A DNA stretch of 64,000 bases from an uncultured Gemmatimonadaceae bacterium (GTDB taxonomy: Bacteria > Gemmatimonadota > Gemmatimonadetes > Gemmatimonadales > Gemmatimonadaceae), in NCBI GenBank assembly GCA_963781585.1, contig CAWAGQ010000008.1, positions 32,001-96,000 on the forward strand. Reading direction: 5' to 3'. Of this stretch, positions 1 to 56,497 are shown in pieces. The notes beneath the pieces were generated by a model, which saw nothing but the letters and a program-made list of their open reading frames with translations, was not told the DNA's origin and did no database searches. A program made the translations under genes and the position numbers. Position 1 is the first letter of the stretch. Each line of letters starts with the position of its first letter.

Positions 1-1196
1 CTGGCCCCGCCCATCGCGCCATTACCATCGCGGGTGCGTGCCAGCGTTGCCTCGCCGGAGGTCGAGGGCGGCGTTGCCTCGCCGGAAATGGAAGGCGCCG
101 CTGTGATCAGCTGCGATACATCGACCACCGCCACCGCATTCGCCCCGCCGAGCGTCACGTAGAGCGTCCGGCCGTCGGGGGAGAGCGCGACCGCCGTGGG
201 TGCCAGGCCGATCTTGCGCTCGTGGAAGGGGGCGATCGGGATCGTCGCCACCATCGAGTCCCGCCGCGTGTCGATGACGCTCACGTCGTCCGAGTTCCCG
301 TTCGCCACGAAAATCCGCTCGTCAGGCCGGTCCCACACCAGGCCCGTCGGGTGCAGTCCGACCGGGATGATCCGCTCGACCCTGCCGGAAACCAGATTCA
401 CGCGCATCACGCTCCCGCGCTCGGCGATGCCACGGGCATCGATGCGCACCGGCTCGGCCATCGGGTCGCAGCACTCGGTGGCCGCGCGTTCCCCGGGCGC
501 GGGCTTCGGCCCGCCCAGGTTGGTCACGTACGCCACCGCACCGGCGGGATCGACCACGGCCGCGACCGGAAGGACCCCGAGTGGAATCGCCGCCAGCAGC
601 GACCCGCTGTCGGCATCGAGTACGGCCAGCGCGTCATTCGCCGGGAGCGGGACCACCGCCACCCGGTGGCCCGAGGCGTTGGCGTGCGCCGCGACCGCCG
701 GCGCGCCGGCCAGATAATCGCCTAACGCCGGCGAGGTCGTCGCGACCACGGCGCTGTCCCTGCCCGCCGCATTGCGCGCCGTACGGTCGCCGGCGTAGGC
801 GATGAGCTGCACCACCGATCGCGCGCGCGCCGGTCGCGCACCGGGAACGCGGGCCATCGCCAGATCGGACGCCAGCCGCCCGACCGACGAGATCACCGCC
901 CGGCCGGTTGCCGGATCGATCGCGACTCCGTGCACACCGGGCCGGCCGTCGAATGCGGCGCTCGCCATCACCCGGTTGTCACGCCAGGCCAGCCGGTACG
1001 CGACGCCGGGAACCGTCACCCACAACTCACCGGGCGTTCGGCCGAACCGGACCCCTGCCACCCGCCCGTCGAACACACTCTGGAGCCCCGCGGGCGTGAC
1101 CCGCTGATCGGTGGCGATCACCCCGGGGTCCGGGACAGTGCGCTGCGGAACGGGCGTCGAACCCGCCTGCAGAAGAAACAGCGCGTGGAGAATCAT
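1..1196 (-). CDS. Secreted YVTN/YncE-type beta-propeller protein (runs off window start)
   Basis: Manual translation from ATG 1196: MILHALFLLQAG..., with propeller repeats AYVTNLGG, IPVGLHPTGL, IFVANGNSDDVSVID and LSPDGRTLYVT. Not in the ORF track because it is partial. Confidence 0.75.
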   Translation of the reverse strand, partial: MILHALFLLQAGSTPVPQRTVPDPGVIATDQRVTPAGLQSVFDGRVAGVRFGRTPGELWVTVPGVAYRLAWRDNRVMASAAFDGRPGVHGVAIDPATGRAVISSVGRLASDLAMARVPGARPARARSVVQLIAYAGDRTARNAAGRDSAVVATTSPALGDYLAGAPAVAAHANASGHRVAVVPLPANDALAVLDADSGSLLAAIPLGVLPVAAVVDPAGAVAYVTNLGGPKPAPGERAATECCDPMAEPVRIDARGIAERGSVMRVNLVSGRVERIIPVGLHPTGLVWDRPDERIFVANGNSDDVSVIDTRRDSMVATIPIAPFHERKIGLAPTAVALSPDGRTLYVTLGGANAVAVVDVSQLITAAPSISGEATPPSTSGEATLARTRDGNGAMGGA

Positions 1197-1339
1197 GCGT
1201 GAATCCTGTCTCCTGTTGCGCGCCGCGCCGCAGCGGCCAGTGTCACAATCCCGTCAACGCCAGCCGGCCGACTGACGCGTGCCCGGTCGTCGCGCCCTCC
1301 ACAATCGAGCCGGCCGCGCGGGACACGGCCGGTGTGACG

Positions 1340-3397
1340 TCACGGCACAACACGCTGTCCCGGTCCGTTCCGGTACTTTTCGAACCAGCCCAGGATGTAC
1401 GCGACCTTCGCCATCATGTTGCTCGGCTTGGCGGCAATCTCGTGCGACGCGTCGGGAATGCGTACCATTGCCGTGGGCACCTTGCGGAGCTTCAGCGCCT
1501 CGTAGAACTGCTCGGCCTCCTCGCTGGGCGTGCGATAGTCCACCTCGCCCGTCACCAGCATCGTCGGCGTGGTGACGTTCCCCACGTAGGTAATGGGTGA
1601 GCGCTTCATGTAGTGCTCGAGATTGTCCCACGGATACCCGGGGAACCAGTATCTATAGAAGAAGCCCGGTCCATCGGCCGTCAGCACGAAGCTGTACCAG
1701 TTGATGACCGGCTTGGCGACCACGGCCGCCTTGAAGCGATTGGTGTGACCGACGATCCAGGCGGTGAGGACGCCGCCGCCGCTGCCGCCGGTCACAAACA
1801 GCTGGTTCGGGTCCACGTAGCCCTTGGCGATCACGGCATCGACCCCCGACATCAGGTCGTCGTAGTCGTGGTCGGGATAGTCGTGGTGAATGAGGTTGCC
1901 GAATTCCTCGCCGTAACTCGTGGAGCCGCGGGGGTTCGTGTAGAGCACCACGTAGCCTGCCGCCGCGTAGAGCTGAATCTCCGACGAGTAGCGCACCCCG
2001 TAGTCGGCGAACGGTCCGCCGTGGATTTCGAGCACCATCGGATACTTCCTGGTGGCATCGAACCCCGGCGGCTTGACAATCCATCCCTGGATGCGCCGCT
2101 TGTCGAAGCTCGACTGGTACCAGATCTCCTCCACCGAGCCTAACGTCTTGTGGCCGAACAGGTCGTCGTTGAGCCGCGTCAGACGCTGGGCGTCGCTCCC
2201 CGCCCCGCCCACCGCCACGTCGGACGGATGGTCGGGCGCCGTCTGGGTGAACGCGAACCGGCCGTTGTCGGCGAGCGAATACGTCCCGCCCGAGTACGGC
2301 CGTCCCGGATCGAGCCCCCCGATGCCTGACGCGAGCGTGGTCAACTGGCCGGTCAGCGTCATGACGCCGATCTTCGTGTCGCCCTGGTCGTCGTACTGGA
2401 AAAAGATCCCCTTGCCGTCGCGACCCCAGTTGACGTTCTGCACATCGCGATCGAACGACCCGGAGATCATCCGCGGGTTCGAGCCGTCGCGATTCATCAG
2501 ATACAGGTGGGTGACCTGGTAGCCCTGGTACTTGTCGTCGAATCCGGTGTAGGCGACGAGCTTGCCGTCGGGCGACACGGCCGGTTCCTGGTCGGGGCCC
2601 TTGCGGGTGGTGAGCTGTTTGATCGTGCCCGACGCCACTGCGACGTCGTAGATGTCGCTCTCGCCGGGGTCGTACTCGGGATTCTCGTGCCGGTTGGCGG
2701 CGAACAGGATGGCGCTGCCGTCGGGAGTCCACTGCGGCGCGCCGTCGTCATACGGGCCGCTGGTGAGCTGGCGCGGCGTGCCGCCTTCGACGGGAAGCAC
2801 GAAGATGTGGCGGTAGCCGCTCCGCAGGTAGCCTGCTCCGTTGAACCGGTACTCGAGCTTGTCGATGTACTTGATCGGCGGGCCCCAGTCGGCGCCCTCC
2901 GGCTTGTCGGGGAGCTGCACGAACGGCTTCGGCTCGTCAGGCACGAACATCACGAACGCGATCCACTTGCCGTCGGGCGACCAGGCCAGCGCGCCCGGCG
3001 ACTCCTCCACGTGGGTGAGCTTCGCCTCCTGGCCCGAGTCCATCCAGCGGACGAAGATGTCTGCCTTGCGCTCATCGATGCTGGAGACGAAGAGGAGGCG
3101 GGTGCCGTCGGGCGACCACCGCGGTGACGCCGCCATCCGGGCGGGATCGAGCAGCGGCCGGAGCTCGGAGCCGTCGGCGTTGACCATCCACAGGCTCGAC
3201 CGCTCGCGGTCCTTCATGATGTCGTAGCCCGCGCGCTCGAACGCCACCCGGCGCCCGTCGGGCGAGATCTGCGGATCGGCCGCCCATTCGAGTTCGAAGA
3301 TGTCGCGCAGGGTGAACCGGTCGCTCGGCGCGGTCTGGGCCGAGAGGGCCGGAGCGGTCAGCGCGAGGCAGACGGCGGGAACCAGGAGTGAACGCAT
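1340..3397 (-). CDS. S9 family peptidase (acylaminoacyl/dipeptidyl aminopeptidase) with PD40 propeller
   Basis: Signal peptide, WSPDG repeats, IHGGP, nucleophile motif GGSGGG, D (DYRTP) and H (ASHEI). Confidence 0.92.
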   Translation of the reverse strand: MRSLLVPAVCLALTAPALSAQTAPSDRFTLRDIFELEWAADPQISPDGRRVAFERAGYDIMKDRERSSLWMVNADGSELRPLLDPARMAASPRWSPDGTRLLFVSSIDERKADIFVRWMDSGQEAKLTHVEESPGALAWSPDGKWIAFVMFVPDEPKPFVQLPDKPEGADWGPPIKYIDKLEYRFNGAGYLRSGYRHIFVLPVEGGTPRQLTSGPYDDGAPQWTPDGSAILFAANRHENPEYDPGESDIYDVAVASGTIKQLTTRKGPDQEPAVSPDGKLVAYTGFDDKYQGYQVTHLYLMNRDGSNPRMISGSFDRDVQNVNWGRDGKGIFFQYDDQGDTKIGVMTLTGQLTTLASGIGGLDPGRPYSGGTYSLADNGRFAFTQTAPDHPSDVAVGGAGSDAQRLTRLNDDLFGHKTLGSVEEIWYQSSFDKRRIQGWIVKPPGFDATRKYPMVLEIHGGPFADYGVRYSSEIQLYAAAGYVVLYTNPRGSTSYGEEFGNLIHHDYPDHDYDDLMSGVDAVIAKGYVDPNQLFVTGGSGGGVLTAWIVGHTNRFKAAVVAKPVINWYSFVLTADGPGFFYRYWFPGYPWDNLEHYMKRSPITYVGNVTTPTMLVTGEVDYRTPSEEAEQFYEALKLRKVPTAMVRIPDASHEIAAKPSNMMAKVAYILGWFEKYRNGPGQRVVP

Positions 3398-3499
3398 AAC
3401 GAGCTCCGGATTGCGAGGACCCGACGGCCGGGGATCCTCGAGTCACAAACGTAGGTCGGCTGACCACCCACAGCCAGTGAGGCCCGGGCGGAGCCGGTG

Positions 3500-4483
3500 C
3501 TATCCTTCCGCAATCTGGTACAGCGCGGCCGCGTTTCCCCCGAGAATCATCGACTTCTCGGCCGCCGGGATCGGCAGCACGCCGATGCTCTCCTTCATCT
3601 TCGCCATGCTGCTGATCAGATGGGGATAGTCGCTCCCCGCCAGCAGCTGACTCACGCCCGCGAACTCGATCGCCAGCCGCAGCGCCTTCGGGTCGAAGTT
3701 GACCGTATCGTAGAAGAACTTCTTCAGATACTCGCTGGGCAGCCGCTCGATGTTCACGCGGCATTCCGGATACGATTCGTAGCCGCGATCCAGCCGCTCG
3801 GCAATGTACGGAATCGCGCCGCCGAGGTGACCGAGCACCCAGCGGATATTCGGATACTTCTCCACCACGCCGCTGAAGACAAGCCCCGCCGCCGCGAGCG
3901 TGGTGTCGAACATGAATCCCACCAGCGGCATCAGCCAGTACTGCTCCATCGCTTCCACGCCCGCGGGATAGTTGGGGTGAATGTGGATCACGGCGCCCGC
4001 GTCGTTTACGCGCTCCCACAGCGGCCAGTAGCCCAGGTCGTGCAGCGCCACGCCGGCGACGTTGCCGTACACCATGCATCCCGCAAATCCCATCGAGATC
4101 GCCCGCTCGAACTCCTTCTCCGATGCCGTCGGATCGTTGAGCGGTAGCGTGGCCAGTGCGGTGAAGTGTTTCGCGCGCTCCGCCTTGATCTGCACCAACG
4201 CGTCGTTCACCAGACTCGCGAGGTACGCCGACCGCTGCGGCGTTTCCATGGTCGTCCCGGGCGCGGTGAGGGTGATGACCTGCATGTCCACCCCGGCATC
4301 GGCGATGACCCCCTCACGAAACGCGATGTCCCGGTGGCCACGGACGACGAAGTTGCGGTCGCCGGGTGAATCGAGGACCGGATTCCCGTCGGCGTCGTCG
4401 CTGACGGTGTACGCGCTCGGGCCTTTGCGGACGGCGTCGATGAACGAGGGCGGATAGTAATGATTGTGGACGTCGATGATCAT
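3500..4483 (-). CDS. Amidohydrolase_2 family protein (ACMSD-like)
   Basis: IDVHNH metal motif, HIHP, HLGG and GSDYPH. Confidence 0.88.
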   Translation of the reverse strand: MIIDVHNHYYPPSFIDAVRKGPSAYTVSDDADGNPVLDSPGDRNFVVRGHRDIAFREGVIADAGVDMQVITLTAPGTTMETPQRSAYLASLVNDALVQIKAERAKHFTALATLPLNDPTASEKEFERAISMGFAGCMVYGNVAGVALHDLGYWPLWERVNDAGAVIHIHPNYPAGVEAMEQYWLMPLVGFMFDTTLAAAGLVFSGVVEKYPNIRWVLGHLGGAIPYIAERLDRGYESYPECRVNIERLPSEYLKKFFYDTVNFDPKALRLAIEFAGVSQLLAGSDYPHLISSMAKMKESIGVLPIPAAEKSMILGGNAAALYQIAEG

Positions 4484-4536
4484 GAAAGGGAGGCGGTTGA
4501 CAGGTGTCAGTTCTCAGCGGGCAAGGAATGCGGTCA

Positions 4537-4630
4537 GGGGCCAGCGGCCACCGGTCAGCACTCATCGATCAACGGTCAGCGGTCAGCGGTCAGCTGATAG
4601 CTGAGCTGCAAGCCGATAGCCGATGGCTGC
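4537..4630. repeat. Intergenic heptamer repeats
   Basis: (CGGTCAG)x3 at 4573-4593, followed by GCTGATA/GCCGATA-type units. Confidence 0.6.
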
Positions 4631-4860
4631 CGTGAAGGTAGCGCTCGCGCGCGGCAGAGCGAGGGCTCGCGTGACGAAACCGGGGCACTGCGTCCCACCC
4701 CCAATCTCGACACGTAGGCCTGTGCACAAACGGTCGCCCGTGACGTCTCCCACGTGTCGTTACCGCGCAATCACCCGCTCCCGAAACCCGGTGGTGCAGC
4801 CCGACTGGCCGACGCCGTGCGCGCCGCGCCATGCACCTGGCTCCCCCACCAGGAGGTCGT

Positions 4861-6793
4861 ATGAGGCCACATCTTCCAGGCATCCTGCTGGCCCTGCTCC
4901 TCGCCCCCGCCCCCGCCCCCACTCCTGCGCGGACGCCCGCCCGCGTCGTGCTCACCGGGCGAGTGACCAGCGCGGCCACCAGGCAGCCGCTGGCCGCGGC
5001 CAGTGTGTACGTGCCGGCTCTGTCACGTTCCGTAGCTACGGACTCCGCCGGCACATACCGCATGGTGCTTGGCGCTGATCAGCGCGGGAAGCAGGTGACC
5101 GTGTACGCGCGCGCCGTCGGATACGCGCCGGCAAACCAGACCGTTCGCCTGACGAGCGACAGCGCGGTGGTGAACTTCGCGCTCGCCGCGGACGTGAACC
5201 GCCTCGTGGAGATGCGGGCCACCGGCGCCACGGCGGCGGAGATGCCGCAGGTCGGCGTTCGCGGTGGCCGCACGCAACGCCGCGAAGGCCGATGCCCTGG
5301 CAACCATCCGCCCCGCGCGCGCCGCCGTGGACCGTGGATTCAACACGGAGTCGTACGATCGGATCGTCGACAATGCCTTTCTGGGGGCGCGTGACAATCC
5401 GCTCAGCACCTTCTCCATCGATGTCGACCGCGCGTCATACAGTAACGTCCGCCGATTCGTCGCCTTGGGACAGCGCCCACCCAGGGACGCCGTTCGCATC
5501 GAGGAACTGGTCAACTACTTCCCGTACGACTATCCGGATCCCGACGGAGCCCGTCCGTTCTCGGTGATCACCGATGTCGCCCCCGCCCCGTGGAGCCCCG
5601 CGCACTACCTGGTGCGGGTGGGTCTCCAGGCCCGGCGCATCGCGCCGTCCGCGCTGCCGCCCAGCAATCTCGTCTTCCTCATCGACGTCTCCGGGTCGAT
5701 GATGCCTGACGAGAAGCTCCCGTTGCTCAAGCAAGCCTTCCGGCTGCTGGTCGGACAGCTCCGCGAACAGGACCGGGTGGCAATTGTGGTATACGCCGGC
5801 GCGGCCGGACTGGTGCTCCCCTCGACCCCCGGCAACCGCAAGGATGAGATTCTCGCGGCCCTCGACCGGCTGCAGGCCGGCGGGTCGACCGCGGGGGGTG
5901 CGGGCATCAGGCTCGCGTACGAAGTCGCGCAACGATACCACCTGCCCAAGGGAAACAACCGCGTGATCCTCGCCACCGATGGGGATTTCAACATCGGCGC
6001 ATCGAGCGACGCGGACATGGAACGCCTGATCGAGGAAAAGCGGAAGCAGGGGACGTTTCTTTCGGTACTCGGCTTCGGCATGGGGAACTACAAGGACTCG
6101 AAGATGGAGACGCTCGCCGACAAGGGGAACGGCAACTACGCGTACATCGACGACATCATCGAAGCACGCAAGGTGCTGGTCGACGAGATGGCCGGGACGC
6201 TGCTGACCGTGGCCAAGGACGTGAAGCTCCAGGTGGAATTCAATCCTCAGCGCGTGGCGTCGTACCGGCTGATCGGCTACGAGAACCGGATGCTGGCCAG
6301 GGAAGACTTCGACGACGACCGGAAGGACGCCGGCGAGATGGGCGCCGGCAACGCGGTGACCGCGTTCTACGAGGTGGTGCCGGTGGGGGTGAAAAGCCCC
6401 GCCGTGCCGAATCAGGATCCGTTACGCTATCAGGCCGCGCCGCCCTCTTCGACACGCTCGACGCGCGCGCACTCGAATGAGCTGATGTACGTCAAGCTGC
6501 GCTACAAGCTGCCTGACAAGGACGCGAGCCAGCGGTTCGATCATGTGGTGATGGCGCCGTCCGACCTGCACGCGGTCGCGACCTCGGACGATTTCCGATT
6601 CGCTGCGTCGGTGGCGGCATTCGGGATGGTGCTGCGCGATTCCGAGTACAGGGGATCGGCCACCCTCGACGACGTGCTGGTGATGGCAGGTGGTGCGCTG
6701 GGCGAGGACGTGGCTGGCTATCGGGCCGACTTCGTGCGCCTGGTGGAAGCAGCGCGCGACCGCGGGATCATGGCGGTGAAGAACGAGCGGTGA
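4861..6793 (+). CDS. VWA-domain protein (YfbK-like) with N-terminal carboxypeptidase-regulatory-like domain; one frameshift near 5260
   Basis: Signal peptide and Ig-like N-terminus in ORF 4831..5394. PLSTFSIDVDRASYSNVR, MIDAS motif DVSGSM and ATDGDFN in ORF 5264..6793. Confidence 0.82.
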
Positions 6794-6943
6794 GTGTGCC
6801 ACGAGCACGCTGTAGTCGGCAGCGGTTGCGGGACGGACCGTGCACGCTGGTGCCGGGGTGGCGCTGATCGTGCTCGGTGTTTGCCGGATCCGCGGAATGA
6901 ACGCAGATTGTGGACCCGACCGCCCCCGGCGACAAGGAGTCCG

Positions 6944-8503
6944 ATGCCACATCACCGAGTGCCCTGGGCCGGCGTCCTGGCGACCCTGGTCCTGGCCGCA
7001 TGCCGGCATGGCGACAAACACACTCCGACCGGGCCGACGGGATCGATCGAGCTGTCCCTGTCCGCGTCCAGTGTGATTGTCGCGCGCGGATCGAGCGCCG
7101 CGGTCACGGCCACAGTCCGACGGCTTCTCGGGTACGCAGGGAATGTGGCGCTCACGTTCGAAGGCCTGCCCGTGGGTGTGACCGCCGCCGCCGACCCATC
7201 GCCGCTGGCGTCATCGGCCACGCAGTCTCAGCTCACGCTCGTGGTGGCATCGACCGTCGCCCTGACCGACTACGCCGTGACGATTCGCGCGCACGGCGAC
7301 GGCGTGGAGGATGTCACGCAGGATCTTCATTTGAGCGTGATCGAGCACGAAACAGCCGTCACCTGGCAGCTTTGCAACCTGACGTCCGCCCTGTTCGCCG
7401 CGAGCCGCTCCGATGGCGAGCCCTGGATCGAGCGGCCGGTCTCGAACCACACTCTGTCCTTCTCGATACGCGGTCGCGGTCGACTGGTGCTGGTGCTCCA
7501 TCTCGATCCGGCCACCACGAACACAACAGAGTACTTCGGCACGGCCGATGACTTCGCTTCGCTGGGGACCGACAAGTGCATCGGCCTCGACGCCCTGCGC
7601 ACCCTGACCGGCACGGTCAGCGGCACCATCGCCAGCGACACCACGCACCTGTCCTTCGGCGCCAGTTCCGTCAACGCGAGCGGCGACGGCCCGTTCTCGC
7701 TTCCGTTCGCGGCCTTCGGCACGCGCGATTACATCGGGACGATCTTCAAGCAGGACCCGGTGACCAGCGTCGGCATGCCCATCAGGTACTGGTATGCGCG
7801 CAATATCGATCCCGGTTCGGGCGGCGTGCTTCCGCCGGTCGATTTCAATGCTGCTGGAATCACGCCCGGGAGCCACACGCTCCACATCACGGATCCCGGC
7901 ACGGACTTCGTTGTGCTCAGCTATGGATACCTCTCCGGAACCGAGCCGACGTGGTACTACATCGATCGCGCTCCGCCCGGCGCCGTGAATCCCTGGTGGC
8001 CCATTCCCCGGCAGGCCGCTGGCGATCTGACGCTGGTGCAGATCTACACGACATCTGCGGCCGCGCCGCTTACCTACCGATTCGATACGGAGATGATGGC
8101 GACGCCGTCCGATGCCACGGTGACAATCGGTCCGCCGATCGGCGATGTCGCCGTGACGGCAAACGCGGCGTCGGGCCATGTCCGGCCGCGTGTGCAGTAT
8201 ACGATCGTCCCGGCGTACGACCAGCAATTCTTCCTGTCGGTCAGCCAGACGACCGGCCCCGCACTGCGCTTCGTTACGGTCTCGGTTGCAGCCGACTATC
8301 TGGATGGAGCCACGACGCTCGATGCCGCCTTCGACGACCTGTCGTCAGTTGCGGGATGGACCGATGACTACGCGCTCACGCCCGGCACGGTATCGTGGAC
8401 ATTCCAGGCCTCGGGCGGGACGGCTTTCAGCGGGCTGCGCATGCGGTACGGGCCCGGGCTGACGTATCGGGGCGCCCGCCGGGACGGCATGACCGTCTTC
8501 TGA
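6944..8503 (+). CDS. Hypothetical lipoprotein with Ig-like N-terminal domain
   Basis: AAGGAG RBS before ATG 6944, lipobox LAAC, beta-rich sequence. Confidence 0.7.
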   Translation: MPHHRVPWAGVLATLVLAACRHGDKHTPTGPTGSIELSLSASSVIVARGSSAAVTATVRRLLGYAGNVALTFEGLPVGVTAAADPSPLASSATQSQLTLVVASTVALTDYAVTIRAHGDGVEDVTQDLHLSVIEHETAVTWQLCNLTSALFAASRSDGEPWIERPVSNHTLSFSIRGRGRLVLVLHLDPATTNTTEYFGTADDFASLGTDKCIGLDALRTLTGTVSGTIASDTTHLSFGASSVNASGDGPFSLPFAAFGTRDYIGTIFKQDPVTSVGMPIRYWYARNIDPGSGGVLPPVDFNAAGITPGSHTLHITDPGTDFVVLSYGYLSGTEPTWYYIDRAPPGAVNPWWPIPRQAAGDLTLVQIYTTSAAAPLTYRFDTEMMATPSDATVTIGPPIGDVAVTANAASGHVRPRVQYTIVPAYDQQFFLSVSQTTGPALRFVTVSVAADYLDGATTLDAAFDDLSSVAGWTDDYALTPGTVSWTFQASGGTAFSGLRMRYGPGLTYRGARRDGMTVF

Positions 8504-8511
8504 TCCAGGCT

Positions 8512-45341: not shown

Positions 45342-45550
45342 GCGTCTAAGAAAGGTCGGATCCATCCGCGTGGGCTTCTGTCGAACGCATAGTCTCTGCT
45401 CAACCGGCGACAATGATCGCCCTATCGTGCCAATGTCACCGCGCCCTCAGCCGCCCCTATCGGCCGTCCACTCTGCCACGGTGGCGCCACCGGGGACGCC
45501 TGTCGTAGAATCGCGGCATCCTCATTGTCGCCCGTCATCCGGAGTTGCGC

Positions 45551-47948
<2,398 letters not shown>

Positions 47949-48200
47949 ATCCTGCTGGTATCTGCCGATTCCCAACGGAGGGCCAGCAGGACGGCAGACA
48001 GCGGATTCGTCGAACTGGCGCATCACCGTGGAGCCGGCTCGTATCGGCTCCATCGAGCGGGAGCGACGCTGCGGAGGCTTCCCAACGTGGTGGCCTGTGC
48101 CGAGATGAGGAATTGGGGATCGGAGTGAGACACCGTCTGCAGTCCAATTGCGCCAATCCGCCGCACGCGCCAGCGTTCGCGTGCGGTGACGTATCCGACC

Positions 48201-48235
48201 TTTACTAGTCAGTTGTATATGACTATAATGGTCAC
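48201..48235 (+). promoter_or_regulatory. TA promoter and operator
   Basis: TTTACT-N17-TATAAT; IR TAGTCA-N8-TGACTA at 48206-48225. Confidence 0.65.
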
Positions 48236-48526
48236 ATGAAGAAGGCGTCCGTCTCCGAACTCAAGGCGCGGCTCAGCGCGTACCTCGACGTCGTGCGCCG
48301 CGGAGACGAAGTGCTCGTGACCGACCGCGGCCGGCCCATCGCCCGCCTCGCTCCGGTCAGTGGCGTCTCCCACGCCACGGGCCGCCGCGAATTGCTCGTC
48401 CGGAGCGGGCAGCTCAAACCGCCCACCGCTCCCCTGCCACGCGACTTCTGGAAGCGTCCCCGCGCGAAGGACCCGAAGGGCCGATCGTTGGCGCTGCTGC
48501 TCGGTGAACGGGAAGAAGGCTGGTGA
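48236..48526 (+). CDS. Phd/YefM antitoxin
   Basis: SVSELKARLSAYL...VLVTDRGRPIARL. Confidence 0.92.
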   Translation: MKKASVSELKARLSAYLDVVRRGDEVLVTDRGRPIARLAPVSGVSHATGRRELLVRSGQLKPPTAPLPRDFWKRPRAKDPKGRSLALLLGEREEGW

Positions 48527-48939
48527 GGTTCTGGGATTCATCGGCGCTCGTACCGCTCGTGCTCGAACAGCCCCTGTCCGCGCGCGCGCGCGCCTTCCAC
48601 GACGAGGATCCCGAACTGGTCGTCTGGTGGGGCTCAGTCGTCGAGTGTGCCTCGGCCATCAGCCGGCTGCACCGCGATGGCGGGTTGACCGACGGCCAGG
48701 AGGAGGCGGCGCGATCGCTTCTCGCGACGCTCCGAAGCAGCTGGTTCGAGATCCAGGCGGGAGACGCGGTGCGGGAGCAGGCCCTCCGGCTTCTTCGCCT
48801 GCATCCCCTACGCGCGGCGGATTCGTTGCAGCTGGCGGCCGGCGTGGAATGGGCCGGCTCGCCGCCAGTGGGCGACTTCGTGTCGTTCGACAATCGCCTC
48901 CGCGCCGCCGCGCAACGGGAGGGATTCCGCGCGCCGTGA
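48523..48939 (+). CDS. vapC: VapC PIN toxin
   Basis: FWDSSALV, LRAADSLQLA and FVSFD. Confidence 0.9.
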   Translation: MRFWDSSALVPLVLEQPLSARARAFHDEDPELVVWWGSVVECASAISRLHRDGGLTDGQEEAARSLLATLRSSWFEIQAGDAVREQALRLLRLHPLRAADSLQLAAGVEWAGSPPVGDFVSFDNRLRAAAQREGFRAP

Positions 48940-49023
48940 GAACCGGGCCGTGTCCTCGCCGGCGCTCTTTCCCTCACTCGCCCCGCCGCCACTTTCCCGG
49001 CGTCTCCCGCATCGATCCGGCCA

Positions 49024-50655
49024 TTGGGCGAAACGCGCGTTGACCTGTTCCACCTGCTCGAGGATCTCGCCGGTGCGTATCCCGGCGAGCTGGGAGACAC
49101 CATCCTCACGGAGATCGTCGCCAACGCGCTCGACTCGGGCGCGTCGACCATCGCTGTTTCGGCCGACACCGCGAACTCCACGCTCACGGTGGTCGACAAT
49201 GGAGCCGGCATGCGCCGAGCGGAGCTGCGCCGGTTCCACGACATCGCCGCGACCACGAAGGAGCGCGGCCAGGGCATAGGCTTCGCAGGCGTCGGAATCA
49301 AGCTCGGACTGCTCGTAAGCGACGAGGTGGTGACCGAAACCGGGCGCGGCAAGGATCACGCCTGTACCACGTGGGCGTTCGCCAACCGGAAGCGCGCCCT
49401 CTGGCAGTGGGTTCCCCCAAGGGACCTGGTGACCGGCACGGGTACCGCCGTGCAGTTGCGCCTCCAGAATCCGCTTTCTCCCCTGCTCGACGGAGCGCTT
49501 CTCGAGGCACGCCTTGCCCGCCACTTCGAGCCGCTGTTCGATTCGTTCTTCGACGAGGTGCTCCGCGGCCAGTATCCGAAGGGCGTCCGCTTCACGGTCA
49601 ACGGCCGGACGCTCGAACGACGCACCGGGCCGGTCGGCGAGATGGCGCGGGTGGCGGTCCACCTCGCCCGGAAACGCAAGCCGGCGGCCACGGGCTATCT
49701 CGTCAGGCACGCCATGCGCCTTGCCGACGATCAGCGCGGCGTCGCGATCAGCACCTTCGGCAAGGTGATCAAGCGCGGCTGGGACTGGCTCGGCCTCAGT
49801 CCCGCGAATCCGGAATTCGTGAACGGCCTCGTCGAAGCACCGGCGCTTGCGATGAGCCTCACGCTGAACAAGGCGGACTTTCTGCGAACGGGTCCGCGCG
49901 GCGCCGTCTATCTCGCGTATCGCAAGGCCATGCAGGAGGCGCTCGCGCAGCAGCTCGCGGCGTGGGGCAACGCGCACAACGCGCACGAACGCACGCGGCG
50001 CCGCGCGGCCCGCCCGGTGGAGCGCGACGTCGAAACCGTCCTGCTCGATCTGGCCGACGCGTTTCCCATGATCGCGATGCTCGTGGAACGCCGGAGCGGA
50101 GGACAGCGAAAGCTGCTGATGGGCCGCGGCGATGGCACCGGCGCGCCGCAACCCATGCTGCTGCCGCCGGAGACAGCGGAAGGCGCGCCGATCGTCGCGC
50201 CCCCGGAAGAAGCGCCCGAAGCCGAGTCGCCCGCCGCCGGCGAGGCGGCGCCTGACGAGCGGGACGCGGAGCCGGAGCTGCCGAGCACACGGGCGGAGCC
50301 TCCGGGCAGCCCCGACCTGCCCGGCACCGCGCCGCTCCAGCTGCCGCAGCGGAAAGGCCGGCGCCGGCCGACACGACTCGGCCTAACGATTCAGTTCGAG
50401 TCCCGCCCTGACGATCCGGAGATCGGGCGCCTTGTGGAGACGACCGTGTGGGTGAATGACGCGCACCCCGCCTACGTGCGCGCCGCCGCATCGCGCGCGG
50501 AGTCGTATCACCTGGCGCTTTCGGTGGCCATGGCGCTGGCGCGGGTGGCGGTCGAGCCCGCGCAGGAACATGAATTCGTCTCCGCATTTCTCGGACGGTG
50601 GGGCGAAGCCGCCGTGGGTGCGCGCACGGCGAGGCGGCGGACACGGAAGGGATGA
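49024..50655 (+). CDS. GHKL (Hsp90/MutL/MORC-like) ATPase of unknown function
   Basis: EIVANALD, DNGAGM, GFAGVG and GTAV motifs; Pro/Glu-rich linker before the C-terminal domain. Confidence 0.8.
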   Translation: MGETRVDLFHLLEDLAGAYPGELGDTILTEIVANALDSGASTIAVSADTANSTLTVVDNGAGMRRAELRRFHDIAATTKERGQGIGFAGVGIKLGLLVSDEVVTETGRGKDHACTTWAFANRKRALWQWVPPRDLVTGTGTAVQLRLQNPLSPLLDGALLEARLARHFEPLFDSFFDEVLRGQYPKGVRFTVNGRTLERRTGPVGEMARVAVHLARKRKPAATGYLVRHAMRLADDQRGVAISTFGKVIKRGWDWLGLSPANPEFVNGLVEAPALAMSLTLNKADFLRTGPRGAVYLAYRKAMQEALAQQLAAWGNAHNAHERTRRRAARPVERDVETVLLDLADAFPMIAMLVERRSGGQRKLLMGRGDGTGAPQPMLLPPETAEGAPIVAPPEEAPEAESPAAGEAAPDERDAEPELPSTRAEPPGSPDLPGTAPLQLPQRKGRRRPTRLGLTIQFESRPDDPEIGRLVETTVWVNDAHPAYVRAAASRAESYHLALSVAMALARVAVEPAQEHEFVSAFLGRWGEAAVGARTARRRTRKG

Positions 50656-50825
50656 CTCCGGACGGAGGTTGTACCGTTGACGCCCTGGCGTGCTTCCCTG
50701 GACGTCATGGCTTGAGTCCGACCGATGCCCACCCTCGACACCGACTGGCGGCTTCGCCTCGCAATGCGGAGCATCCGAACCGCGAGTTCCTCGCCGAGCG
50801 CTTCGAGCGGTTCCGGGCCGCGTAG
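50652..50825 (+). pseudogene. Possible 3' remnant of an HNH restriction-endonuclease-like gene
   Basis: TPD...HGL...PRNAEHPNREFLAERFERFRAA* resembles the C-termini of such proteins; recognised from memory only. Confidence 0.35.
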
Positions 50826-52116
50826 AGTCCGGTCCGTACGTCGCTTGGGCAGGGAATCCGGCCGCACGGTGCTTGTGCGGGCAGGACTTCTTAGTTAAAC
50901 TTAGGCCGTATTCTTTAATAGTGCCGCACGCTATTCAAACCGACTTGAATAAGCGCCAAGCCACCGCATGAAGCGGGCTCAGTCGGGGCGATACGAGATC
51001 ACCTCGGCCGGCGGTGAGCGCGTGCGCGCGTTCGTGCCGGATCCCCTTCCTCCACGGCCGCCGCTCGCTCTCACTGGCCGGTTGCAGCAATCGCTCGAGG
51101 CCGCAGTCCTGGCCACTGGCCGTCTCGATGGGGTCTCCACGTTGCTGCCCGATAGGTCACTCTTCCTTTACACCTACGTGCGAAAGGAGGCAGTGCTCTC
51201 ATCACAGATTGAAGGGACGCAGTCGTCTCTGTCCGACCTGCTGCTCTTCGAGCTTGACGAAGCTCCTGGTGTGCCCGTGGACGATGTCGCGGAAGTATCC
51301 AACTACGTGGCGGCGCTGGATCACGGGCTCGCCCGCATGCGTGGTGGATTCCCGCTGACCAATCGGCTGATCCGTGAAATCCACGGCGTGCTGTTGTCCC
51401 GTGGGCGCGGGGCCGGCAGGGCTCCCGGTGCATTTCGACGGTCGCAGAACTGGATCGGAGGCACGCGCCCCGGCAACGCCGCATTCGTGCCCCCGCCGGC
51501 GCACGCCGTGCAGGATTGCATGTCCGCGCTCGAGCGTTTTCTCCATGCCACCGACGACGGCCTGCCGCTGCTCGTACGAGCCGGACTTGCGCACGTTCAG
51601 TTCGAGACGATTCATCCGTTTCTTGACGGCAACGGACGGGTAGGCCGCTTGCTTGTCACACTGCTTCTGGTGCATGCCGGCATGCTTCACGAGCCACTGC
51701 TCTATCCCAGCCTGTACCTCAAGCAACACCGGAATGCGTATTACGATTTGCTCACGCGGGTCAGAGAGAAGGGAGACTGGGAAGCCTGGCTGTCCTTCTT
51801 TCTCGTCGGGGTCACGGAGACGGCGGAAAGCGCGGCCATGACCGCGAACCGTTTGACGCAGCTGTTCAGTGAAGACCGCGCAAGGATCGAGACGTTGCGT
51901 ATTTCGCCACATCTCGTTCACCGATTTCGCTCCAAGCCGTTCACCCATTTCGGTCCAAGCCGTTCAGTCGTTTCGCTCCAAGCCGTTCGCTCATTTCGGC
52001 CCATGCCGGTCACCCGTGCCGGTCCAAGGCGATCGGGCGTGATGCGATGAGTTGAGGGCCGCGGGATCCCGTCCACTGCCAGCGATCCTTCCGGGAACTC
52101 TTTCCGGAGCGACGCC

Positions 52117-53778
52117 GTGGCAGCTGTGAGGGTATCCATGCGGAAGGTCCTTGACGTCGTGCGGCTCCGCTTCGAGGCGGGCCGCAGCCAGCATGAGATC
52201 GGGCTCGCCCTGGGGCTGGCGCAGAGCACCGTCGGCGAGTACCTGCGCCGCTTTCAGGCGAGCGGGCTCGCGTGGCCGCTCGCCGCGGACCTCGACGAGG
52301 CGGTGCTCGAGGCGCGGCTCTTTGCTCGTCCCGCTGCGCCGGCGGCCGAGGCGAGACCGCTCCCCGACTGGCCGACTGTTCACCGCGAGCTCCGGCGCAA
52401 GGGGGTGACGCTCCAGCTCCTGTGGCACGAGTACAAACAGGGCGAAGCGGACGGCGCGGCGTGCTATCAGTACACTCAGTTCTGCCGCCACTACCACGCG
52501 TGGGCCGCCCAGCTCGATCCGGTGCTCCGGCAGCAGCACACAGCGGGCGAGCGCACCTTCGTGGACTATGCGGGCCAGACCATCGACGTCGTCGACACGA
52601 CGACGGGCGAGGTCCGCGCGGCGCAGCTCTTCCTCGGCGTGCTCGGCGCAAGCAACTACTTCTTCGCGGAGGCAACGTGGACGCAGACGCTGCCGGACTG
52701 GATCGCGTCGCATGTGCGCATGGTCGAGTATTTCGGGGGCGTCAGCGCCTTGATCGTGCCCGACAATTTGCGGAGCGGCGTGACGCACGCCTCGTTCTAC
52801 GAGCCGACCGTCAACGCGACCTATCAAGACTTCGCCACCCATTACGGCACGGCGATTCTACCCACGCGGGCCGCGCGGCCCCGCGACAAGGCGAAAGCGG
52901 AGTCGGGCGTGCTGGTCGCCGAGCGCTGGCTCCTGGCCCCCCTGCGCCATCACACCTTTACGTCGCTCGCGGAGCTCAATGGCGCGATTGCGCAGTTGCG
53001 GGAGGTTGCGAACGACCGGCCGTTCCAGAAGCTCGCCGGCTCGCGCCGCTCGCTCTTCGAGACGCTCGACCAACCGGCGCTCCGCCCGCTGCCCGCCACG
53101 CGCTACGAGCTGGCGGAATGGCGCACGGCGAAGGTGAACATCGATTATCACATCGCGGTCGACGGCCACTTCTATAGTGTGCCGTATGCCCTGGTGCGCG
53201 CGGCGGTCCGTGTCCGCCTCACCGCGTCGATGATCGAGGTGCTGCATGAGGGCAAGCGGGTGGCGACCCATGCGCGGAGCGCGCAGCGCGGGTGCTTCAC
53301 GACCGAGCCCGCGCATCGGCCCAAGTCGCATCAGGCGCACCTCGAGTGGACGCCCTCCCGTCTGGTCCACTGGGGCGCCAGCATTGGCCCGTCGACCGGG
53401 GCGCTCGTGACGAGGATCCTCGAGCGCTGGCCGCATCCCGAGCAGGGGTACCGCGCGTGTCTCGGCCTCTTGTCCCTGCGCAAACGCTACCCCGACGCGC
53501 GGCTGGAAGCCGCGTGTGTCCGCGCGCTCACCACCGGCGCGACGAGTTACAAGTCGGTGAAGTCGATCCTCGCCGCCGGGCTCGATCAGGTCGCCCCGGA
53601 GGAGCCACCACCCCTGCGGCTGCCGGCGACGCACGCCCACATCCGCGGCGCCGACTACTACGCCGACTCCCCGGCTCCGGAGTCCGCGCTGGAACTCCCC
53701 CGGTCGTCTTCGGCCTCCTTGTCCTCCTCCTCCTCCTCCTCCTCCTCCTCCTCTACGTCTGGAGACCGCTCATGCTGA
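52117..53778 (+). CDS. istA: IS21 transposase IstA
   Basis: FVDYAG, VPDNLRSGV and PRDKAKAE (DDE). Confidence 0.95.
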   Translation: MAAVRVSMRKVLDVVRLRFEAGRSQHEIGLALGLAQSTVGEYLRRFQASGLAWPLAADLDEAVLEARLFARPAAPAAEARPLPDWPTVHRELRRKGVTLQLLWHEYKQGEADGAACYQYTQFCRHYHAWAAQLDPVLRQQHTAGERTFVDYAGQTIDVVDTTTGEVRAAQLFLGVLGASNYFFAEATWTQTLPDWIASHVRMVEYFGGVSALIVPDNLRSGVTHASFYEPTVNATYQDFATHYGTAILPTRAARPRDKAKAESGVLVAERWLLAPLRHHTFTSLAELNGAIAQLREVANDRPFQKLAGSRRSLFETLDQPALRPLPATRYELAEWRTAKVNIDYHIAVDGHFYSVPYALVRAAVRVRLTASMIEVLHEGKRVATHARSAQRGCFTTEPAHRPKSHQAHLEWTPSRLVHWGASIGPSTGALVTRILERWPHPEQGYRACLGLLSLRKRYPDARLEAACVRALTTGATSYKSVKSILAAGLDQVAPEEPPPLRLPATHAHIRGADYYADSPAPESALELPRSSSASLSSSSSSSSSSSTSGDRSC

Positions 53779-54590
53779 TGCAACAAACGCTCGACCTCCT
53801 GCACACGCTGCGGCTCCCCGGAATGGCCCAAGCGCTCGAAGAACAGCAGGGTGTGCCGGATCTCGCGAGTCTCGCTTTTGAAGACCGCCTCGCGCTCCTC
53901 CTTGAACGGGAGCGCCTCGGCCGCGACGATCGGCGACTCACGCGGCTGCTCCAGATCGCACGCTTTCGCGAGGCGGCCTGTCTGGAGGACGTGAACTTCC
54001 GCGTGAAGCGCGGCCTCGACCGGAACATCTTCCTCCGGCTCGGTACCGGCGACTGGATCCGGCACCATGACGTGATTCTCATGGTCGGTCCCACTGGAAC
54101 GGGGAAGACCTGGCTGGCCTGTGCGCTCGGCCACAGTGCGTGCCGCCAAGGGCACGTGGTCCGCTACGTCCGTCTGCCGCGACTCCTCAGCGAGCTGGCG
54201 ATTGCGCGCGGTGATGGATCGTACGGACGGCTCCTGCAACAACTCGCCAAGACCGACCTGCTCATCCTGGATGACTGGGGGCTCGCCCCGCTCGGCGATC
54301 GCGAACGCCGCGATCTCCTCGAAGTGATCGAAGATCGATCCGGTCGGCGCTCGACTCTCGTAACCAGCCAAGTGCCCGTGGACCACTGGCACGAACTCGT
54401 CGGCGACGCCACGTTTGGCGACGCCATCCTCGATCGCCTCGTCCATCACGCGCACCGCATCACGCTGACCGGAGGCTCGCTCCGGAAACTCAAACGGCCC
54501 AGGCCGTGTCCCCTACCACCGAATAACCGTGACTCCACCGATCCCGTGTCTCTCCGCTCGTCGCTGAACGCGATCGTCCGAACCCCGTGA
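53772..54590 (+). CDS. istB: IS21 helper ATPase IstB
   Basis: GPTGTGKT, LLILDDWG and AILDRLVH. Confidence 0.95.
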   Translation: MLMQQTLDLLHTLRLPGMAQALEEQQGVPDLASLAFEDRLALLLERERLGRDDRRLTRLLQIARFREAACLEDVNFRVKRGLDRNIFLRLGTGDWIRHHDVILMVGPTGTGKTWLACALGHSACRQGHVVRYVRLPRLLSELAIARGDGSYGRLLQQLAKTDLLILDDWGLAPLGDRERRDLLEVIEDRSGRRSTLVTSQVPVDHWHELVGDATFGDAILDRLVHHAHRITLTGGSLRKLKRPRPCPLPPNNRDSTDPVSLRSSLNAIVRTP

Positions 54591-55130
54591 ACGCTTTGGA
54601 GCGAAACGGCTGACCGGCTTCACGCGAAACGCGTGACCGACTTGAGCGAAATACGAGACGTCAGGACGTCGTGCCGGTTCGGCGCTCAGGGTTCACGATG
54701 CGCTCAAGGCCCGCCCCATACTCTCGATGCCGGAAATCGCCAGACGGACCAGGCTGGGCTTCCCGACCGCCTCTTCGGCAATGGAGCGCCTTGTCTCGTC
54801 AGGCATAGCCCGCGAGCTCACCGGCAGGAGACGAAACCGGTTGTTTGTCTACACGCGCTACCTGGCCGTACTGAATGAAGGAACGGAGCCCATTCTTCCT
54901 TCCGGGACAAGGCGCACATGACGTCAGACGCCGCCCTTTCCACCGGGTTGGCTTCGACGGCCCAACAGGCACATTCATCGGCTGGTAAGCGCGGGAGCGC
55001 GGCTTTCCACACGGCCTCCGCACAGAGCGTCCGCCTAACCATCCGGCGCATGACGTGGCCACGACCGGGTCCCGCCGCCGCACGGCTCCGCTCTGGACGT
55101 GAGGAAAAGCTCGAATCGCCGTGACCCCGA

Positions 55131-55453
55131 CGGTGAGCTACGCGGGGTGTCTCGACAACTGGATGGACACGATGTGGTGGAACGAGCAGTGGATGGGGTG
55201 GCCCACTGGGCCGAAGTCCTCGGTGTGGTCGAACCTTGGCCAAAGCGGACCCGGCCGCCAAGGGATGGTGCTGCCGGTAGTGGGGAGCTCGACACCAACG
55301 TCGATCCGTCGTCAACCATGCAAGCGGTGAACGCGCTGATCAAGGCGAACAAGACGTTCGATCTCCTGGTGGTGCCGGGAGAGGGCTCATGGGGCCGGGC
55401 GGCGCGGGATCACGGCGGCGTACGGGGAGCACGAGCGGTGAGACTATTTTGTG
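55131..55453 (+). pseudogene. Degenerate duplicate of the 3' part of the DPP IV gene (47548-47867)
   Basis: Long near-identical blocks such as TGGTGGAACGAGCAGTGGATGGGGTGGCCCA, with substitutions and indels. Confidence 0.88.
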
Positions 55454-55469
55454 TGGGCCATGGCCACGG

Positions 55470-55522
55470 TTGACCGCGCCCAGTCGACGTGCTAGGTTCC
55501 ATTCTGCTTCCATTATGGAACC
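55470..55522 (+). promoter_or_regulatory. TA promoter and operator
   Basis: TTGACC-N17-TAGGTT; IR GGTTCCAT/ATGGAACC. Confidence 0.6.
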
Positions 55523-55531
55523 CGCCGACCC

Positions 55532-55774
55532 ATGGCTACCCTTACCATCAAGAGCATCCCGGACCCGCTCTATCGCCAGCTCAAGGAACGGGCCGCGGAG
55601 CATCGACGCAGTCTCAACAGCGAGGTCATCGTTTGCCTGGAGCAGGCCGTCGCCGGCAACGTTCCTGATCCTGTCACCACGCTGGCAAAGGCCGACGCCC
55701 TTCGGGCCAAGCTTCGCGTGCCGCGGTTGACCGAGGCTCGGCTCCGGACCGCCAAGTCCGCCGGACGACCGTGA
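55532..55774 (+). CDS. Arc/FitA-like RHH antitoxin
   Basis: MATLTIKSIPDPLYRQLKERAAEHRRSLNSEV. Confidence 0.9.
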   Translation: MATLTIKSIPDPLYRQLKERAAEHRRSLNSEVIVCLEQAVAGNVPDPVTTLAKADALRAKLRVPRLTEARLRTAKSAGRP

Positions 55775-56187
55775 TCGTCGTTGACACCAACGTCATCGCG
55801 TACCTGCTCCTCCCCGGTGATCAGACGGAGGCTGCGCGGGGCGCCCTCGCGCGGGACGCGGCGTGGGCCGCGCCGATCCTCTGGCGCAGTGAGCTCCGCA
55901 ATGTGCTTCGCGGCTACATGCGGCAGCGTCACCTCACCTTGGCGCGGGCGCGCGAGGTGCAGGGCACGGCGGAGGAGCTGATGGTCGGCCGCGAGTTTCA
56001 GGTGGAGAGCCCCGCGGTTCTGGACCTCGCTGCAGCGAGTGGTCTGAGCGCGTACGACTGCGAGTTCGTCGCGCTGGCGCGCGCGCTTGAAGTGCCGCTG
56101 GTTACGTCCGATCGGGATGTCCTGGCGAGCTTTCCCAGGGACACGGTCTCGCTGACGCTCTTCGGGTCCGGTGCGCCGGGCGCCTAA
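55771..56187 (+). CDS. vapC: VapC PIN toxin
   Basis: IVVDTNV, SAYDCEFVALA and LVTSD. Confidence 0.92.
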   Translation: MIVVDTNVIAYLLLPGDQTEAARGALARDAAWAAPILWRSELRNVLRGYMRQRHLTLARAREVQGTAEELMVGREFQVESPAVLDLAAASGLSAYDCEFVALARALEVPLVTSDRDVLASFPRDTVSLTLFGSGAPGA

Positions 56188-56497
56188 CGTTGCTTACTCG
56201 GGGCGGTTTTCGGTCGCGCGGCGTGAGGCGTAGCTCCCATTTGAGCCAGCCCTGGCGGAAGTGCGTGCGTCAATACGCAATGGGCACCGATAAGTTGGCT
56301 GAACGAGCGAAGTGAGGCGGCCGGGCTGTTGGCAACATCGACCATGCGCCTTGGTGATATGCACGGTTGACCAACTGAACGCATGCATCGGACCCTCAAG
56401 CGCGCGATCGCCCCGCCGCCGCCCGGACACGGCACAGTCAGCAGCAGCCGTACCCCGTTGTGCAGCCTACCTTAGGAGTGATGCCGCGCCAGACAAA

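Follow-up and report, generated by a model that had tools for sequence, protein, structure and literature searches.

In this study, we examined a 64-kb stretch of DNA from an uncultured Gemmatimonadaceae bacterium (GenBank assembly GCA_963781585.1, contig CAWAGQ010000008.1, positions 32,001 to 96,000; 64,000 nucleotides, hereafter the window) and an octamer that recurs along it, CGTTAGGC (reverse complement GCCTAACG). This octamer, whose precise form is CGTTAGGCR, is not a palindrome; it is hyper-abundant in, and specific to, a Gemmatirosa-like branch of the Gemmatimonadaceae. It is enriched far above every expectation, behaves as a property of double-stranded DNA irrespective of strand, saturates the sites open to it, has left its mark on the encoded proteome, is evenly spaced and is restricted to one clade. 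Its most likely role, which we put forward tentatively and by analogy, would be that of a self tag working like the uptake signal sequences (USS) of the Pasteurellaceae and the DNA uptake sequences (DUS) of the Neisseriaceae.

Abundance and codon context of the octamer in the window

A both-strand search of the window found 24 exact copies of CGTTAGGC, 6 on the plus and 18 on the minus strand. In 100 dinucleotide shuffles the mean was 1.17 and the largest count 6, so that none of the 100 reached 24, and under Markov models of orders 1 to 3 the expectation was 0.6-1.1, the octamer being the top-scoring 8-mer at each order. The maximal-order Markov expectation was uninformative because sub-words of the octamer are themselves enriched, and lower orders were used instead. 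Across dinucleotide, Markov and codon-preserving shuffles the expectation was 0.5-1.2, in a window whose G+C content ranges from 57 to 72% in 2-kb bins. An earlier inspection of the letters alone (the sequence-only reading) had already called the octamer strongly over-represented against about 2 expected copies, and the contrast proves stronger than that; its 23 coordinates were all right, with one copy, at 26696 on the plus strand, overlooked.

Coding constraints leave this excess intact. The 36 coding sequences (CDS) modelled in the window (52,920 nt; chosen by third-position G+C and checked by Pfam) hold 21 copies, compared with 0.53 after synonymous permutation within each gene (maximum 4 in 1000 permutations), which keeps every protein and the codon usage of every gene, TTA codons included. 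Codon permutation gave 0.47 (maximum 3). Therefore codon usage, amino-acid sequence and dicodon content do not account for the counts; an explanation by codon and dicodon usage is what the sequence-only reading had named as its refutation.

Eighteen of the 24 copies are read as xCG|TTA|GGC, that is [Ala/Ser/Thr/Pro]-Leu-Gly. Two (28007, 36600) provide the TAG with which their own gene stops, and one the TAA stop of a gene on the opposite strand (56182), while three lie antisense, encoding Pro-Asn at 26696 and 36138 and Leu-Thr at 50381. These assignments bear out the frames described earlier, including the use of TTA in x-Leu-Gly, the three stop codons and the antisense copies at 36138 and 50381. 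TTA is the second-rarest of the leucine codons in the window (22 of 1,670; CTA, 17), and it is not equally frequent elsewhere: 18 of the 22 lie inside the octamer, and of the four that do not, three fall in variants of it with one or two mismatches. Conversely, 18 of the 60 [SPTA]-L-G tripeptides are spelled with CGTTAGGC. The individual copies are as follows, L002 being a related locus described below.

720..727, minus strand: sense, gene 3-1196(-), GCG TTA GGC (A-L-G)
2138..2145, minus strand: sense, S9 peptidase gene 1340-3397(-), ACG TTA GGC (T-L-G)
8941..8948, minus strand: sense, amino-acid permease gene 8512-9813(-), T-L-G
11649..11656, minus strand: sense, Ser/Thr kinase gene 9810-12611(-), S-L-G
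12444..12451, minus strand: sense, same Ser/Thr kinase gene 9810-12611(-), S-L-G
15888..15895, minus strand: sense, amidohydrolase gene 14265-16385(-), A-L-G; GCG CTG ACT in the L002 orthologue
16952..16959, minus strand: sense, alpha-L-fucosidase gene 16811-18157(-), A-L-G
21391..21398, plus strand: sense, M20 peptidase gene 20370-21878(+), A-L-G; I-V-G in the L002 orthologue
22873..22880, plus strand: sense, gene 21912-23006(+), A-L-G
26696..26703, plus strand: antisense, FG-GAP gene 25719-27323(-), G CCT AAC G (P-N)
28007..28014, minus strand: TAG stop (CGT TAG) of gene 28009-30078(-)
28501..28508, minus strand: sense, gene 28009-30078(-), A-L-G
29665..29672, minus strand: sense, gene 28009-30078(-), S-L-G
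31404..31411, minus strand: sense, amidohydrolase gene 30126-31745(-), A-L-G; identical in the L002 orthologue, GCG TTA GGC
32823..32830, plus strand: sense, amidase gene 31937-33454(+), S-L-G; TCG TTA GGA in the L002 orthologue, one mismatch
34237..34244, minus strand: sense, MacB/FtsX-type permease gene 33979-36471(-), A-L-G
36138..36145, plus strand: antisense, MacB/FtsX-type permease gene 33979-36471(-), P-N
36600..36607, minus strand: TAG stop of M56 peptidase gene 36602-37798(-)
37649..37656, minus strand: sense, M56 peptidase gene 36602-37798(-), P-L-G
40238..40245, minus strand: sense, M14 peptidase gene 38288-41254(-), T-L-G
42254..42261, minus strand: sense, acyltransferase gene 41345-42676(-), A-L-G
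47506..47513, plus strand: sense, DPP-IV/S9 peptidase gene 45753-47948(+), S-L-G
50381..50388, minus strand: antisense, HATPase_c_3 gene 49024-50655(+), GGC CTA ACG (G-L-T)
56182..56189, minus strand: opposite strand of, and TAA stop (GCC TAA) for, PIN gene 55771-56187(+)

The proteins of the window are typical of Gemmatimonadota, with PD40-bearing S9 peptidases and kinases and duplicated FtsX permeases. The amidase encoded at 31937-33454 has a best protein match of 93% identity, and its named matches belong to Gemmatimonadales or Gemmatimonadaceae. Scans of the window for tRNA genes and with Rfam returned no match.

A second word and single-base variants

Among the 24 single-base variants of CGTTAGGC, only CGTCAGGC is enriched in the window, with 29 copies against about 5.8 expected; this related motif had gone unrecorded in the sequence-only reading. 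Within CDS it occurs 26 times, compared with 5.3 by synonymous shuffle (maximum 13), and it is 4- to 16-fold enriched in four of five frames. Fourteen of the 29 copies are antisense, read as G|CCT|GAC|G, or Pro-Asp with the rare CCT codon. The flanks (T at -1 in 18 of 29 copies, a purine at +1 in 27 of 29) give the extended form TCGTCAGGCR. Its copies span 320..61249 and start at the following positions.

Plus strand (20 copies): 320, 2935, 10202, 11090, 16028, 18070, 19500, 19916, 21141, 23906, 25490, 26462, 28449, 30092, 30501, 32272, 38839, 49701, 54797, 60670
Minus strand (9 copies): 2324, 5147, 5704, 10249, 15614, 38501, 43229, 50250, 61242

Taken together, the two words are balanced between the strands (26 plus, 27 minus) at a total density of 0.83 per kb. 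Plasmid 2 of Gemmatirosa kalamazoonensis KBS708, introduced below, has its own enriched one-off variants, all of them transitions: TGTTAGGC (85 copies), CGTCAGGC (157), CGTTGGGC (150) and CGCTAGGC (13). TCGTCAGGCR is strong in the window and in L002 and weak in Gemmatirosa, whose variant is TGTTAGGC, and it looks like a lineage dialect of the first word. When the word and the variant of each lineage are counted together, the total density is about 0.8-1.2 per kb in all three lineages. An origin of CGTTAGGC from CGTCAGGC by deamination was considered and rejected, since Gemmatirosa has fewer copies of the supposed source than of the product, and in the window the two differ in their flanks.

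Distribution among relatives

Our taxonomic picture is drawn from 10 short Gemmatimonadota loci among the matches listed, plus Gemmatirosa. A search of genome contigs with the amidase alignment yielded, among the matches listed, 80 loci totalling 1.31 Mb (best identity 66%), which hold 13 copies of CGTTAGGC. Six of these lie in L002, a 12.7-kb locus of a Gemmatimonadaceae metagenome-assembled genome with 63% G+C, where 0.18 would be expected and the octamer is the top word; the same locus has 9 copies of CGTCAGGC against 1.4 expected. In the nine other Gemmatimonadota loci among those matches (144,079 bp) there are 0 copies of CGTTAGGC. In the amidase tree, the window and L002 pair with support of 99/96, and their sister group (L001, L003, L004) is without the word. 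The lineage-specific character claimed in the sequence-only reading is thus borne out, the word being present in the window, L002 and Gemmatirosa and absent from those nine loci.

Six positions of the first word can be compared between the window and its L002 orthologues: one is shared exactly, one is shared but decayed, and four are lineage-specific. Some of the differences come with amino-acid changes (PFLGH/PTLGL, VIVGG/VALGG). Sharing of one or two of six positions is about what independent gain at about 25-30% occupancy would give, with no evidence of positional conservation in this comparison, which does not separate selection from drive. L002 also carries, at 6050-6135, an intergenic tandem array of an 8-nt unit (GGTAAACG with a GGTAGACG variant) adjoining an octamer at 6029. 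The array is local and was found neither in the window nor in Gemmatirosa; GGGTAAAC, high-scoring in L002, was dismissed as a genome-wide motif because it came from a single local tandem array.

A protein search of a plasmid collection identified the two megaplasmids of Gemmatirosa kalamazoonensis KBS708. Samples of 50 kb from each contained 33 and 30 copies of CGTTAGGC against about 0.5 expected, and the octamer was the top 8-mer in both.

Frames and occupancy on Gemmatirosa plasmid 2

The whole of plasmid 2 (NZ_CP007130.1; 1,040,503 bp, 72.8% G+C) holds 701 copies of CGTTAGGC, or 0.67 per kb and one per 1.48 kb. Genes were called with our own codon-model caller, independently of any annotation, giving 734 genes; benchmarked on the window, the caller recovered the stop codons of 29 of the 36 manual models and made 11 further calls. 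By these calls, 302 copies are sense x-Leu-Gly, 160 antisense Pro-Asn and 132 intergenic, 41 lie on a TAG stop in sense, 32 are antisense Leu-Thr, 21 are sense Val-Arg, 12 lie at an opposite-strand TAA stop and 1 at a gene start. The 132 intergenic copies make up 19% of all copies in 10.6% of the DNA, which is twice as dense.

Relative to synonymous shuffles, the word is 21- to 210-fold enriched in all four stop-free frames: x-Leu-Gly 302 vs 8.7, antisense Pro-Asn 160 vs 7.6, antisense Leu-Thr 32 vs 1.4 and Val-Arg 21 vs 0.1. Of the sites whose protein sequence would admit the word, it fills 24% of [SPTA]-L-G, 51% of x-P-N-[VADEG], 7% of [SRCG]-L-T and 3% of x-V-R-[LPHQR]. Of 384 TTA codons, 357 lie in YG-TTA-GGC, 302 of them within the word itself and 55 within TG-TTA-GGC; the word contains 160 of 456 CCT codons and supplies 46 of 145 TAG and 17 of 41 TAA stops. 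This enrichment in all feasible frames and orientations, in intergenic DNA and in stop codons agrees with the earlier view that the pressure falls on DNA and not on protein. Whatever the class, and intergenic copies are no exception, the word is followed by a purine in about 85% of cases and hardly ever by T; the recognised unit is therefore CGTTAGGCR.

Some copies occur in local structures. Short tandem arrays with 12- and 15-nt units and an octamer in each unit lie at 108118-108173 and 697547-697599, and a small number of perfect hairpins are formed by two inverted octamers (for instance at 220550 and 445821). Plasmid 2 further contains a recurrent intergenic module of two inverted blocks, each of two or three 11-nt repeats (GGACTGAAGRA), adjoining CTCCACGTACG; examples are at 44152-44247, 63214-63288, 81323-81395, 93861-93953, 481559-481650 and 490041-490124. 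At several sites CTCCACGTACG abuts apparent divergent start codons, and the 12-mer GGACTGAAGAAG occurs 46 times. The module looks like a shared bidirectional promoter or operator.

Proteome, spacing and strand use

The word has raised the frequency of the peptides it encodes. On plasmid 2 the observed/expected ratio of P-N-[VADEG] is 2.31, compared with 1.04 in the nine motif-less Gemmatimonadota loci, that of [SPTA]-L-G is 1.41 compared with 0.90, and that of A-L-G is 1.59 compared with 0.98. In the window, A-L-G stands at 1.44 and P-D at 1.49, the latter against 1.28 in the control loci.

Copies on plasmid 2 are spaced more evenly than random. The coefficient of variation of spacing is 0.91, compared with 0.997 ± 0.037 in simulation, a value as low being reached in 0.55% of 2,000 simulations; gaps below 250 bp number 71 vs 108 ± 9 simulated, and the variance/mean ratio in 10-kb bins is 0.72.

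Strand use follows gene orientation, and the word is without replichore polarity. Plasmid 2 has 335 copies on the plus and 366 on the minus strand, with sense:antisense ratios of 153:93 in plus-strand and 170:99 in minus-strand genes. In the two halves around the GC-skew turn, 56% and 54% of copies lie on the majority strand, as do 58.5% and 56% of coding DNA. A different octamer, GCTGGTGG, the E. coli Chi octamer, has 23 of its 26 window copies on the G-rich strand (3:23); on plasmid 2 its bias reverses where the GC skew turns, near 640 kb, going from 27:46 to 23:12. It may be a candidate polar word of the type of Chi or of the FtsK-orienting polar sequences (KOPS), or may simply reflect CTG-GTG codon usage plus gene orientation.

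A motif-poor defence and mobile stretch

Taken together, the two words are scarce in a defence and insertion-sequence island of the window, at 50656..60406 (G+C 0.63 overall, 0.57-0.61 in its 56-60 kb end). Counted together they number 2 against 8.1 expected (p=0.009), which is significant, and the first word alone numbers 1 against 3.7 (p=0.10), which is not. The sequence-only reading had seen no copy in the IS21 element or at 56.2-60.4 kb; this is true, and for the first word alone it falls short of significance across 50,656-60,406. On plasmid 2, word density and local G+C are weakly and positively correlated (rho 0.22, p=0.024). The island contains the following genes.

50968-52050: SoFic-type Fic protein (PADLOC SoFic, E 6e-102)
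52117-54590: IS21 istA/istB
55771-56187, plus strand: PIN gene
56675-57367: HNH nuclease, with weak similarity to Type IV restriction enzymes
57454-58233: HARE-HTH protein
58654-59889: retron-type reverse transcriptase, 411 aa

Models of the RT-TIR, RT-protease and Ec67 types match the reverse transcriptase (RT) part only, ending near residue 358, and no fused effector domain is evident in these matches. Next to the island, between an unassigned open reading frame and the Fic gene, lies a gene for a 543-aa HATPase_c_3 (GHKL) protein (49024-50655) with this domain at its N-terminus; neither MutL middle or C-terminal domains nor a PADLOC match was found in it.

Interpretation and rival explanations

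Our findings require a force on double-stranded DNA itself that is sequence-specific and strand-symmetric. It must be able to fix the rarest codons and alter amino acids, is limited by coding, reaches saturation near one site per kb and is found in a single clade. We rate a self tag of the USS/DUS kind as the most likely explanation because molecular drive of uptake sequences is the best-understood process with these properties. Under this process, a DNA-binding component of an import or recombination machinery would prefer fragments that carry the word; a mutation creating the word would be re-imported and recombined more often than its alternative; and molecular drive would bring the word to about one per 1-2.7 kb in all places where the encoded protein permits, so that it marks resident DNA as 'self'. 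Biased import of word-bearing fragments followed by recombination has been described by Bakkali as the way uptake sequences spread (PMC1939737, partial text), and Findlay and Redfield reported that such sequences inflate the peptides they encode and leave newly acquired genes bare (PMC2817400, partial text). That the recognising machinery serves DNA uptake or transformation we infer from the likeness to uptake sequences. Among the four functions put forward in the sequence-only reading, then, the self or uptake type of tag is favoured, while Chi-like recombination and m6A or m4C methylation are disfavoured on the grounds given below.

Several observations weigh against an uptake-type tag. The literature searched contained no report of competence in Gemmatimonadota, and a search by term of a review-type genomics paper (PMC9426454) found no mention of it. 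Only 19% of the plasmid 2 copies are intergenic, whereas about half of DUS/USS lie in terminators, and inverted pairs are not enriched on plasmid 2 (of 46 pairs less than 120 bp apart, 18 are inverted, where roughly 27 would be expected). The assignment of copies to gene classes there depends on our own gene calls. All of the listed sequence features would, moreover, follow equally from another sequence-specific drive or from selection for a DNA-binding site.

One such drive, the main rival, would be a by-product of the kind proposed for the highly iterated palindromes (HIP), in which a modification enzyme (5mC, or another mark silent in sequencing by the single-molecule real-time (SMRT) method) combines with mismatch- or nick-directed repair biased toward the word to give a ratchet devoid of function. 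We regard this as unlikely here. The enriched one-off variants of plasmid 2, being transitions throughout, would offer substrate for a mismatch-repair bias. SMRT sequencing is insensitive to 5mC, and 5mC stays compatible with the SMRT methylome of KBS708. The word is non-palindromic and 8-9 bp long, an unusual site for a 5mC methyltransferase. A repair ratchet has been published for HIP sequences by Elhai, with a similar frequency of about one per 1000 nt, and those sequences are palindromes tied to identified methyltransferases (PMC4390886, partial text). The KBS708 methylome contains only the motifs RGATCY, ATGCAC and CCAGN7TCA (m6A), none related to the word (PMC3974934), and an m6A or m4C methylation site is disfavoured because no motif matches. 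Vsr-type repair of T:G to C:G would in addition favour CGTCAGGC, and Gemmatirosa has the opposite, 701 copies of CGTTAGGC vs 157 of CGTCAGGC, the latter mostly in a common-codon frame. Slightly less probable is a binding site for a chromosome-architecture or other DNA-binding protein, selected at regular intervals. It fits the under-dispersed spacing and the similar density on chromosome-like DNA (the window) and on two megaplasmids, and both selection and a nucleoid role have been argued for HIP1 by Xu, Lawrence and Durand (PMC5861425, partial text). A need for one site per 1.5 kb, however, leaves the 24-51% filling of compatible sites and the reshaped proteome unexplained, and the sharing with L002 (one position of six exactly, one decayed) resembles independent saturation.

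The remaining candidates were rejected. A polar signal of the Chi or KOPS type, read by a recombination helicase-nuclease or by FtsK, would suit an asymmetric over-represented octamer with 18 of 24 window copies on the G-rich strand; that bias, however, tracks gene orientation and frame, the second word is biased the opposite way (20 plus, 9 minus), both half-plasmid shares match the coding strand, and GCTGGTGG is skewed in the same data. With no skew beyond gene orientation, and sense:antisense ratios alike in plus and minus genes, such polarity is very improbable. Still more so is a signal in translation or mRNA that depends on TTA as a rare codon (control of the bldA type, pausing or an RNA-binding site): 75% of the window copies are indeed in-frame sense TTA, but in Gemmatirosa the antisense Pro-Asn sites are filled more fully than the sense Leu-Gly sites (51% vs 24%), and antisense, intergenic and stop-codon copies are all enriched. 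We give next to no credence to the idea that the copies are left over from integron attC sites or from small mobile repeats (repetitive extragenic palindromes, REP, or miniature inverted-repeat transposable elements, MITE). GTTRRRY is the integron core consensus, and GTTAGGC fits it, as had been pointed out earlier; the likeness is a coincidence. None of 25 GTTAGGC cores has an RYYYAAC inverse core 40-140 nt upstream, a Pfam scan covering 51 candidate proteins yielded only the integrase-core domain of the IS21 transposase and no integron integrase, the flanks past -1/+1 are not conserved, and Rfam gave no match in the window.

Returning to the uptake-type tag, a fuller version of it can be stated with somewhat greater reserve: CGTTAGGCR may be a true DNA uptake or self-recognition sequence of Gemmatimonadota, the first outside the Neisseriaceae and Pasteurellaceae, with TCGTCAGGCR and TGTTAGGC as its dialects. 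If so, Gemmatirosa-like bacteria would be naturally transformable and would prefer the DNA of their own clade through a receptor of a new kind. The A+T core of the word stands in a genome of 63-73% G+C, so the drive would have to suffice for fixing the rarest codon, for determining a third of TAG/TAA stops and for raising Pro-Asn in the proteome about twofold.

Whatever its mechanism, the word belongs among the hyper-abundant lineage-specific oligomers, and we found no prior report of it. No paper found links Gemmatimonadota or Gemmatirosa to such a word, the text matches listed for the octamer being unrelated primers and constructs, and the KBS708 genome note does not mention it (PMC3974934). 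Such words are known from few groups only (USS, DUS, HIP1) and are the main handle on how bacteria discriminate self from foreign DNA in gene exchange. A cultured and fully sequenced carrier, KBS708, makes a direct test possible in a major, rarely cultivated soil phylum. The word also accounts for an odd codon usage, in that it contains almost every TTA codon and a third of the TAG/TAA stops, and in these genomes it is a useful marker in binning and in the detection of foreign islands. Should it promote uptake, genetic tools for these bacteria could be improved with it.

Comparison with known systems

Chi is modestly enriched and co-oriented with replication. Our word shares with it the form of an asymmetric over-represented octamer and differs in being about 40- to 70-fold enriched with no polarity beyond gene orientation.

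Closer are HIP1 of cyanobacteria (GCGATCGC) and the alternate HIPs, which are likewise octamers of very high abundance, with about one per kb and an over-representation of 15- to 300-fold, found inside and between genes, with non-random spacing in the case of HIP1 (PMC5861425, PMC4390886, both partial text). HIP1 is now argued to aid transformation (PMC13756078, partial text). HIPs differ in being palindromes that contain the site of an identified methyltransferase, whereas CGTTAGGC is non-palindromic and has no match in the KBS708 methylome.

USS and DUS occur at about one per kb. USS are reportedly evenly spaced in Haemophilus, as Karlin et al. are said to have described in 1996. Like our word, USS are short and asymmetric, lie on both strands and mostly within genes, use coding-tolerant frames and raise the peptides they encode; they are lacking in genes without homologues in relatives, and here few copies lie in the island of the window (PMC2817400, partial text). 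The frames of USS correlate with preferred codons according to the same source, whereas our word forces the rarest codons (TTA, CCT) and stops because of its A+T core in a 63-73% G+C genome. DUS are clade-specific words with lineage dialects (PMC3630211, partial text), and here CGTTAGGC is common to three lineages. About half of DUES sit in terminators, frequently paired in inverted orientation (bioRxiv 10.1101/2025.10.24.684340, partial text), as opposed to 19% intergenic copies and no enrichment of pairs here. Preferential uptake has been demonstrated for USS, and the receptor of DUS is the pilin ComP (PMC3868556, partial text). On balance, the word fits the DNA uptake sequences (USS/DUS) best and HIP1 less well.

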